In this document: piece after piece, positions 38,603-40,367 of the stretch
Position numbering within the stretch: the first letter of the stretch is position 1
How the letters are laid out: each line of letters begins with the position of its first letter
Source: a phage
Sequence record: PZ445524.1
DNA length: 64,000 bases
Direction: 5' to 3' (one strand)
Translations under genes and position numbers: made by a program
The notes under the pieces: model-generated
What the model was told of the DNA's origin: nothing
Databases searched by the model: none
Seen by the model: the letters and a program-made list of their open reading frames with translations, nothing else

Positions 38603-39691
38603 CGTATGTTCGATTGAGCTCGCTAATTCTCAACCCGTTCTCTTATGAACTGCTGCATGTTACCATGCAGTCCAGACTATATCACAATCCCGGAGGGATT
38701 CTCCCCATTTCGAGTCGCTTGACCCTACGTCCGAAGACTAGTCGTTGAACCTTGCTTTGCAATTGTCGCCGTGCCATCGTTTATATGTTGATGGTGATAA
38801 ATCTTTCTTACCACAATATGGACAATTCAATTGAATTCTATTTGGATTTAATTTACATCTGTCATTATGTTTTAGATAAAATCCAGGACCTTTACCAATG
38901 TGACCACAGAAATCACATGTGATTTCTTTTTGTGCAGGATGGGTCCCGTTCTTAACCATTTCTAATGTTTTTGCTGATGTTCTTTTCTTATGGTCTTCTG
39001 ATAAGAAATGATGTGAACCGTCATTTACCCGTTTTGATTGAGTTTCTGACTGCATTTTACCACCGCAAAATACATGAGTACCTTCTTTTATAGCTGCAAT
39101 ATTGCGTTCTTTAACTTTTGCAATATGCTCAGCTTGTTGAAAATTATGTATACCTAATGCAACTCTATTTAAATTAGATTTACGCTGTATTTCACCATCT
39201 AAAAGATGAAATGTACCATTTTCTATCTTAGATTTAATAGAGGCAATATTTTTAGCTCGTACTTCAGGGATATTAAAAATCTGGATTTCTCTAGATTTTG
39301 CGGCTTTAGAAGCTAATTCAGAAATTTCTTCAGGAGAATATTTCATTCTAAGCTTTATAGCATGACAAGCCTGGTAATCTTTTTGAGCTAAATGTATATC
39401 ATAATGTTCCTGTATAGAAAGGCACATCAAATTATCTAAATCATTATTTTCACGGTTACCGTCTTTATGATGGATTTCGTATGTTCTTCCATCAGAATCT
39501 TTAGGTATAGGTCCGTTAGCATCTATCCAAATTTTTCTATAGTTCAATTGTGCATCCTCTTAAAAGTATAATCATATTTATATTATACTAATTAAAGGTG
39601 CAAGCAAAACCTTGGCTGCTAGTTTTCCATAAAGGACTTTCCAGCAATTAAAGGAGTTTTCGATAAACGTTACCGTTTAAAGGCGCATTTT
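38603..39691 (-). mobile_element. group I intron in nrdB (about 1089 nt) carrying the I-TevIII ORF
   Basis: interrupts conserved NrdB motif; 5' exon ends in U; P1-type pairing of exon GCGU with intron GCGC; 3' core resembles the td intron. Confidence 0.8.
38738..39547 (-). CDS. I-TevIII: I-TevIII HNH homing endonuclease, full length
   Basis: 269 aa; HNH motif EIHHKDGNRENNDLDNL...H and C-terminal Cys-rich zinc-finger region; apparent TTG start, exact start uncertain. Confidence 0.85.
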   Translation of the reverse strand: MNYRKIWIDANGPIPKDSDGRTYEIHHKDGNRENNDLDNLMCLSIQEHYDIHLAQKDYQACHAIKLRMKYSPEEISELASKAAKSREIQIFNIPEVRAKNIASIKSKIENGTFHLLDGEIQRKSNLNRVALGIHNFQQAEHIAKVKERNIAAIKEGTHVFCGGKMQSETQSKRVNDGSHHFLSEDHKKRTSAKTLEMVKNGTHPAQKEITCDFCGHIGKGPGFYLKHNDRCKLNPNRIQLNCPYCGKKDLSPSTYKRWHGDNCKARFND

Positions 39692-40367
39692 ACGCAAAAG
39701 ATACATAAAAACGAATAGCTTCCAATGCGTTGATTACATGGAGGCAAAGGTAAAGAGATTTCATTAAAGCACGTTTAGCTTCGGCTTCTTGTTTAATAGC
39801 TCGGTTTAAACGAAAGACGGCATCAGGAGATTCTTTAGCTAGTTCTACAAATTCTTTAGCATTTTCCCATTCACGGGTTTTAATCAGAACATCATCATAA
39901 TAACGCCCAATGGATTCAGCACGTTTCATAATAGCTTCATCTAATACAATCTCATCAAATACCTTCGATGGATCAGTATAAAGATTTCGCATGATATGTG
40001 TATATGAACGGCTGTGAATAGTTTCACTAAAAGTCCACGTAGCAACCCATGTATCAAGACTTGGGTCTGAAATTAATGACATAAGTACAGCAGATGGCGC
40101 ACGACCCTGAATGCTATCCAAAAGTGATTGATACTTCAGGTTGTTAGTAAAAATATTTTGCTGATACTGAGGAAGCTTATTAAACTGTGCAGCATCCATC
40201 ATTAAGTTTACTTCTTCCGGGCGCCAGAAAAATGATAATTGCTTTTCGGTCAAATCTTCAAAAACTTTATGGCGTTGAATGTCATAACGCGCAATACCAA
40301 GACCTGAACCAAAAAACATAGGTTCTTTTAAAACATCAACTGGATTTGTATTAAAAACTGTAGACAT
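39692..40367 (-). CDS. nrdB: ribonucleotide reductase beta subunit NrdB, exon 1
   Basis: 225 codons ending ...EAIRFYVSFA; next in-frame codon is TAA inside the intron. Confidence 0.8.

Follow-up and report, generated by a model that had tools for sequence, protein, structure and literature searches.

The nrdB gene of the phage DNA analysed here is interrupted by about 1.09 kb of sequence that contains an open reading frame of its own, and the question raised by this locus is whether the interruption is a spliced group I intron and, if so, whether the endonuclease gene within it is intact and could still render the intron mobile. The original prediction, made from the letters alone, placed such an intron at 38603–39691 and read its ORF as an apparently intact, 269-aa I-TevIII of the HNH type. 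The window, i.e., the whole stretch of DNA that was analysed (64,000 nt of record PZ445524.1), is a segment of a Tequatrovirus, a T4-like phage, in which nrdB lies on the minus strand. On the evidence set out below, positions 39691–38603 of the minus strand very probably constitute an RB3-type, full-length T-even nrdB group I intron with an intact I-TevIII gene in its P6a loop.

The boundaries were determined by global alignment of window positions 40367–38100 (minus strand) with the intronless nrdB of phage RB27. This alignment contains a single insertion of 1089 nt, 39691–38603 on the minus strand, which cannot be slid in either direction; thus, the predicted coordinates are exact. The splice sites, which had been placed at 39692/38602 from the continuity of NrdB motifs and the rule that the exon ends in U and the intron in G, follow unambiguously from the same alignment, and a structure model with covariation now supports the assignment as a group I intron. 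The last base of exon 1 is U (39692) and that of the intron is G (38603); exon 1 ends in ...UUUUGCGU, exon 2 begins with GUACCUUU, and the intron itself starts with AAAAUGCGCC and ends in ...ACAUACG. Removal of the insertion restores a frame of 1179 nt that encodes a 392-aa NrdB, identical to RB27 NrdB at 369/392 positions (94%) and reading ...YVSFA-C-TFNFHK... across the restored junction. The same procedure yields an intron of 598 nt for T4 and of 1091 nt for RB3, and both sets of coordinates reproduce the joined-CDS lengths in the curated records. Window and T4 have the same 12 exon bases to either side of the junction, so that the splice junction determined experimentally for T4 can be applied directly to the window. 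The features of the locus are collected in Table 1. ORFs of the plus strand within the intron, as given by the ORF list, are all of 91 aa or less and are unsupported.

Table 1. Positions of the nrdB locus features in the window
Feature	Coordinates	Strand	Basis or remark
Gene order: td (intron-split), nrdA, methyltransferase ORF, nrdB, denA, rnlA		−	
nrdA	43502-41238	−	
D12-class (Dam-like) DNA adenine methyltransferase ORF, 267 aa	41205-40402	−	Pfam PF02086, E = 1.4e-23; PHROG 56
nrdB exon 1, 676 nt	40367-39692	−	ATG at 40367; RB27 alignment, ORF list
Group I intron, 1089 nt	39691-38603	−	Insertion relative to RB27; structure and covariation
5′ core half	39695-39600	−	Pairing counts; Rfam alignment of ORF-less homologues
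P1	39695-39692/39686-39683	−	
P2	39679-39664	−	
P3, 5′ strand	39656-39651	−	
P4	39646-39641/39622-39617	−	
P5	39636-39626	−	
P6, 5′ strand	39615-39614	−	
P6a, 5′ strand	39607-39600	−	
Homing-site-like "operator" (putative)	39609-39583	−	21/27 identical to spliced junction TTTTGCGT/GTACCTTTAACTTCCATAA
RNA hairpin, -14.3 kcal/mol	39601-39552	−	GCACCUUU pairs with AAGAGG(A)UGC
T4 late-promoter motif TATAAATA	39582-39575	−	In loop of RBS hairpin
Shine-Dalgarno AAGAGGA	39561-39555	−	7 nt upstream of TTG
ACAATTG repeat, copy 1	39551-39545	−	Includes TTG start
I-TevIII ORF, 810 nt, 269 aa	39547-38738	−	TTG start, TAG stop; looped out of P6a
H-N-H catalytic codons, H26, H27, N39, H48	39472-39404	−	All four kept
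Two zinc fingers CX2CX12-13HX3C, residues 211-231 and 242-263	38917-38759	−	Regular-expression match; DNA-binding domain
ACAATTG repeat, copy 2	38766-38760	−	Near ORF 3′ end, start of P6a′
3′ core half	38760-38612	−	Pairing counts; partial Rfam match
P6a′/P6′	38760-38750	−	
P7	38743-38739/38679-38675	−	
P7.1	38738-38729	−	
P7.2	38725-38712	−	
P3′	38706-38701	−	
P8	38700-38686	−	
P9	38670-38653	−	
P9.1	38650-38637	−	
P9.2	38635-38612	−	
nrdB exon 2, including stop codon	38602-38100	−	RB27 alignment

A side observation concerns the exon flank. Exon 1 ends in GCGU, which is needed for P1, in all 11 intron-bearing alleles, while the intronless RB27 has GCAU, a synonymous difference at window position 39694, i.e., at position -2 from the splice site. 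With this single intronless allele as the comparison, the difference fits co-conversion or selection of the exon flanks along with the intron.

The second line of evidence is the structure of the intron RNA. The ORF-less core was aligned for 11 natural variants (window, RB3, AV119, T4, S16, SG1, HY03, CJY920, AV114, G8, and DCP80), and 14 helices were drawn by hand: P1, P2, P3, P4, P5, P6, P6a, P7, P7.1, P7.2, P8, P9, P9.1, and P9.2, with P7 pseudoknotted with P3. The 73 pairs of these helices are standard in 99.5% of 801 cells, and eight of them show compensatory double changes (P2 with three, P9.2 with two, and P5, P7.2, and P9 with one each). In a control in which the 3′ partners were slid by 1–3 columns, pairing was 35–42% with zero compensatory pairs, and the observed covariation score was reached by 0/500 shuffles. 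Since the structure was drawn on the same sequences, the percentage of paired cells is partly circular, whereas no such circularity attaches to the compensatory changes. P1 (GCGU/GCGC) does not vary among the 11 sequences; within it, U39692 of exon 1 pairs with G39686 (intron G6), forming the canonical U-G pair. Judged by this architecture, the 1089-nt insertion is a group I intron and is predicted to splice; for the T4 allele, guanosine-dependent self-splicing is established in work cited in PMC1865063.

The covariance-model search that the original prediction had proposed as a check gave a divided answer. At the gathering threshold (Intron_gpI, RF00028, 50 bits), Rfam has no match on the whole window, and likewise none at the T4, SG1, RB3, and S16 loci. 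With permissive filters, window positions 38893–38653 are matched at 36.3 bits (E = 2.9e-7), a hit that is meaningful for the 3′ half of the core; the 5′ half of that alignment was set aside, as the model is there forced onto the 3′ end of the ORF. The score falls below the threshold because the 810-nt ORF splits the core, and the other four loci are missed because an ORF or an ORF remnant splits it there as well. By contrast, the ORF-less nrdB introns of CJY920 and DCP80, each of 309 nt and, respectively, 95% and 92% identical to the non-ORF core of the window, score 71.7 and 74.1 bits. A similar 3′ core is present in more than 600 phage records, with Staphylococcus, Bacillus, Pseudomonas, and others as hosts.

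The Rfam register of P6a (G93 with position 116) was dropped for its mismatches, and an alternative P6a with a bulged A was used. In this alternative, the pair C99-G116 is intact in the window and broken in T4, AV119, HY03, and DCP80 by a G-to-A change, which is also the source of the A265T substitution in I-TevIII. It should be noted that coding sequence and ribozyme overlap at this end of the ORF: the last seven codons of I-TevIII and the stop codon (CKARFND and stop, 38760–38738, minus strand) coincide with the first 23 nt of the 3′ core, covering P6a′, P6′, J6/7, and the 5′ P7 strand and reaching one base into P7.1. P5 has three pairs instead of four, owing to a 1-nt deletion near window position 39630 that is common to the window and T4 and absent from RB3, AV119, and S16. 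The lost fourth pair covaries as U-A, A-U, or G-C in other variants (alignment column 74).

The third line of evidence is the ORF itself. It is free of frameshifts, and its product is identical to RB3 I-TevIII at 267 of 269 positions without gaps, the two differences being Y23 (D23 in RB3) and G246 (D246 in RB3); it shares 268/269 residues with the AV119 protein (A265T) and differs from that of S16 at 29. Pfam HNH_3 is matched by residues 4–48 (E = 6e-13), and PHROG 12324 ("intron-like DNA endonuclease") is matched end to end (1–269/269, 638.8 bits). In the RB3 enzyme, for which cleavage, zinc binding, dimerization, and intron homing have been demonstrated, alanine at H26, H27, N39, or H48 abolishes cleavage, and C211, C214, C242, and C245 are zinc ligands required for DNA binding (PMC1865063). 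The window protein retains the four cysteines as well as the catalytic residues, and the Cys-rich C-terminal region noted in the original prediction corresponds to the two zinc-finger motifs. Nei-Gojobori dN/dS is 0.10 versus HY03 and 0.12 versus S16, which indicates that the ORF is under purifying selection. In terms of its sequence, the ORF is a full-length, intact I-TevIII gene, and the allele that it encodes is presumably active.

The two substitutions deserve a closer look. Y23, three residues before the catalytic H26, is also found in AV119 and S16, RB3 alone having D among the copies compared; G246, which directly follows the zinc ligand C245, is also G in AV119 and is D in RB3, T4, and S16. 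Thus, neither is a private lesion of the window. G246 may affect DNA binding, and the main residual uncertainty is whether the G246 allele is fully active. A sequence search of the PDB with I-TevIII returned no solved relative at E ≤ 0.01. A Pfam match to FlgM (anti-sigma-28) at residues 74–114 (window 39326–39206; 26.2 bits against a cut-off of 25) was discarded as probably spurious, the segment being a charged helical linker.

The original prediction took the ORF to start at TTG and regarded this as unusual. The start codon stands, while its unusual character does not, since TTG is the annotated I-TevIII start in RB3, AV119, and S16. An in-frame TAA lies four codons upstream of it, and the next in-frame ATG, at Met41, is located downstream of H26, H27, and N39; a start at Met41 would drop these residues, which leaves TTG as the sole start giving an active enzyme. 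To judge from the annotated relatives, the TTG start is a conserved feature of the gene rather than an anomaly of the window.

The surroundings of the start codon conform to a known scheme. Three T4 intron endonucleases have an intron-internal late or middle promoter, a hairpin that hides the ribosome-binding site, and a homing-site-like operator that overlaps the promoter, the operator being a proposed site of autorepression (PMC2988022). The promoter motif, the hairpin, and the operator of this scheme are all found in the window. The hairpin is kept in 11/11 intron variants examined, and the operator has a local alignment score of 15, whereas shuffled sequences average 7.4 (sd 1.2) and 0/500 of them score as high. 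The conservation of these motifs, together with the scheme published for T4 and RB3, suggests that the three elements are functional in the window as well. In U5, SG1, and G8 the hairpin loop is 6 nt shorter and devoid of TATAAATA, the motif being retained in the window, RB3, T4, and S16; an alternative U5 hairpin is mentioned in a review (PMC2988022). A generic scan for sigma-70 promoters and terminators was uninformative, with 10 sites found versus 11.8 expected.

Together, these observations suggest the following course of events. The intron RNA would fold into the P1–P9.2 core, its catalytic capacity being suggested by sequence and structure; guanosine would attack after the exon-1 U of the P1 U-G pair, the terminal G (38603) would set the 3′ splice site, and ligation of the exons would lead to the 392-aa NrdB. 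In early and middle transcripts that read through nrdB, the Shine-Dalgarno sequence of I-TevIII would be locked in the hairpin, and late transcripts starting just past TATAAATA would be without the 5′ arm of the hairpin and could be translated from the TTG. The enzyme may then repress its own promoter through the mimic of the homing site beside it. In cells co-infected by an intronless phage, the I-TevIII dimer would use its two zinc fingers to bind the intronless nrdB junction, and the recipient would acquire a copy of the intron, along with adjacent exon sequence, through double-strand-break repair; this course is suggested by the 99% identity to the RB3 enzyme. The host genome of the intron would be protected, as the intron splits the target there. 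Weighed against this course were the shortened P5, with which the T4 intron splices all the same, and the modest homing of the RB3 intron.

The I-TevIII gene has been lost repeatedly in other phages, in which at least four independent internal deletions were found, each bounded by 4–8 nt of microhomology. Those of T4, AV114, G8, and SG1 were mapped relative to positions 168–831 of the window intron: T4 and G8 have a 491-nt deletion at an imperfect GAAGAMCATA repeat, AV114 a 504-nt deletion at AAGAACAT, and SG1 a 664-nt deletion at AGATG. The original prediction had stated that T4 carries a deleted, inactive I-TevIII, which is borne out both by the alignment and by the literature (PMC2988022; PMC2790892). 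The 309-nt introns of CJY920 and DCP80 correspond to a 785-nt deletion between the two ACAATTG direct repeats that flank the window ORF. Since they keep the promoter, the hairpin, the Shine-Dalgarno sequence, and the TTG, these short introns are derived by loss of the ORF and are not ancestral. The recurrent deletions fit repeated decay of the homing endonuclease gene, and the window allele, seen beside the deleted variants, illustrates the invasion-decay cycle of such genes.

This decay lends some substance to an alternative in which the intron splices and the full-length I-TevIII allele is dead, in catalysis or in DNA binding, for example through G246 next to C245, which would leave the intron immobile or dependent on mobilization in trans. 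The allele does differ at two residues from the one enzyme that has been tested, that of RB3, and homing endonuclease genes decay often, as the deletions among relatives attest. However, all eight experimentally essential residues are kept, G246 recurs in AV119 and Y23 in AV119 and S16, a dN/dS of about 0.1 places the ORF under selection in these lineages, and the promoter, Shine-Dalgarno sequence, hairpin, and TTG are intact. Moreover, with no adjacent mobE to provide trans-homing, persistence of the intron is more simply explained by the activity of its own I-TevIII. We therefore consider a dead allele improbable, with a small chance of being correct.

The remaining alternatives dispute the intron itself. 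For AV119, S16, SG1, and other phages, automatic annotation gives two NrdB fragments ("nrdB_1" and "nrdB_2") and a separate endonuclease, as would be appropriate if nrdB were truly a pair of genes, each translated on its own, on either side of a free-standing HNH gene and without RNA splicing. Exon 2, however, has no start codon at the junction, and the frame continues only after removal of exactly 1089 nt; the sequences on either side of the ORF pair into a group I core that shows covariation and is recognized by Rfam in the ORF-less relatives. A joined CDS is given in the curated entries for T4 and RB3, and splicing of T4 nrdB has been shown experimentally in work cited in PMC1865063 and PMC2790892. 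On the grounds of structure and reading frame, two separate genes were rejected as a next to impossible arrangement. Nor is it credible, beyond the slightest chance, that the intron is in fact deleted as in T4 and owes its full-length ORF to chimeric assembly or to a sequencing artefact. Nothing specific speaks for this, except that the exact 269-aa sequence is absent from a collection of 15 billion proteins and differs by at least one residue from those deposited there; against it, the 1301-nt region is colinear, at 98–99.8% identity, with dozens of independently sequenced phages, and the surrounding 8 kb are colinear with Escherichia phage vB_Eco_BGP at 96% identity. A full-length nrdB intron with an intact I-TevIII gene thus remains the reading that we prefer.

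Besides vB_Eco_BGP, many other Tequatrovirus genomes are colinear with the 8-kb neighbourhood of the intron, at 97–98% identity over about 90% of its length, and nrdA of the window is uninterrupted. The gap between nrdA and nrdB, which is occupied by the homing endonuclease gene mobE in T4 and RB3 and by hef in U5, holds a Dam-like methyltransferase ORF in the window; no mobE was found adjacent to the window nrdB in the ORF list or with Pfam. The methyltransferase ORF is present in only 8 records of the phage collection. Five records have a version that is about 96% identical, and the one inspected, 236Ecol005PP, has an intronless nrdB and a nrdA annotated as two pieces with a "putative mobile endonuclease" in between; the methyltransferase (82% identical) and the full nrdB intron occur together only in vB_Eco_BGP besides the window. 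The ORF looks like another cargo at the known insertion hot spot between nrdA and nrdB. The window also contains a second endonuclease-bearing group I intron, in the thymidylate synthase gene td (45932–44056, minus strand), which is split into exon 1 (45932–45381) and exon 2 (44370–44056); the intron ORF (45252–44515, minus strand) encodes an I-TevI-like GIY-YIG protein of 245 aa. Rfam at the gathering threshold has no match to the td intron.

As to prevalence, nrdB is detectable by megablast in 946 records of the phage collection, 128 of which (~13%) contain the 5′ segment of the intron. A 1301-nt query spanning the full intron is covered to at least 80% by 85 records, and 88 records encode at least 80% of I-TevIII; the full ORF is thus kept in about two-thirds of the intron-bearing records (85–88/128). 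RB3, RB5, RB6, RB7, RB9, and RB10 are annotated with "I-TevIII: homing endonuclease". According to reports cited in PMC1865063 and PMC2988022, the full-length form was first described in RB3 by Eddy and Gold (1991). Mobility of the RB3 intron was demonstrated by Robbins et al. (2007), with a homing frequency of 4.3% per recipient, which exceeds that of the T4 intron donor more than 40-fold (PMC1865063). With such a relative, "potentially mobile", the wording of the original prediction, seems fair. Its observation is confirmed and its interpretation supported, and no new insight is gained beyond it: the nrdB intron with a full-length I-TevIII is a feature already known and well studied. In our opinion, the region merits annotation as one spliced nrdB CDS and I-TevIII rather than as a pair of NrdB fragments with a hypothetical protein, as in many database records. 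Beyond correct annotation it matters little, being one more natural full-length allele that opens no new question.

Among known introns, that of RB3 (KM606994/AY262130) is a direct counterpart, occupying the same insertion site of the same gene. The two are 99.1% identical (1091 nt in RB3 versus 1089 nt in the window), the window having a 1-nt deletion in the P5 loop and another in the 3′ tail. They share the 269-aa ORF in P6a, the TTG, the Shine-Dalgarno sequence, the hairpin, and the late-promoter motif, and the tested catalytic and zinc-binding residues are identical. They differ in their neighbours, mobE in RB3 versus the Dam-like methyltransferase in the window. The AV119 intron is still closer, with 99.8% identity. 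AV119/AV120, TadeuszReichstein, vB_EcoM_G2285, WilhelmHis, and about 80 Tequatrovirus and Gelderlandvirus records are 99.2–99.8% identical to the window over 1301 nt, the named phages and their like showing only point differences. Most of the records with a full-length intron are annotated automatically, as a split nrdB with a "homing endonuclease" or a "hypothetical protein".

The T4 intron, in turn, equals the window intron minus positions 209–699. The retained positions agree at 596/598 (99.7%), including the T4-type deletion in P5, and the 491-nt deletion takes residues ~22–185, and with them the HNH domain; the resulting frameshift leaves an annotated remnant of 97 aa. This close match, together with the P5 deletion that RB3, AV119, and S16 lack, hints that the window allele and a few near-identical ones (e.g., that of TadeuszReichstein) represent the undeleted progenitor form of the laboratory T4 nrdB intron, a tentative suggestion to which we assign somewhat less than an even chance. 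The T4 intron relies on the neighbouring mobE for trans-homing (PMC2790892), whereas in the window the ORF is complete and mobE is absent next to nrdB; a genome of this kind would be a natural case of nrdB-intron spread that depends solely on I-TevIII.

The other intron endonuclease systems of T4, td/I-TevI and nrdD/I-TevII, have the same design, in which a phage group I intron resides in a gene of nucleotide metabolism and the ORF is looped out; they also share the late or middle promoter and the hairpin that sequesters the ribosome-binding site, and their cleavage site likewise lies some distance away from the point of insertion (PMC2988022). The enzymes themselves differ: I-TevI and I-TevII are of the GIY-YIG type and monomeric, while I-TevIII is of the HNH type, dimeric, and binds DNA by zinc fingers (PMC1865063).
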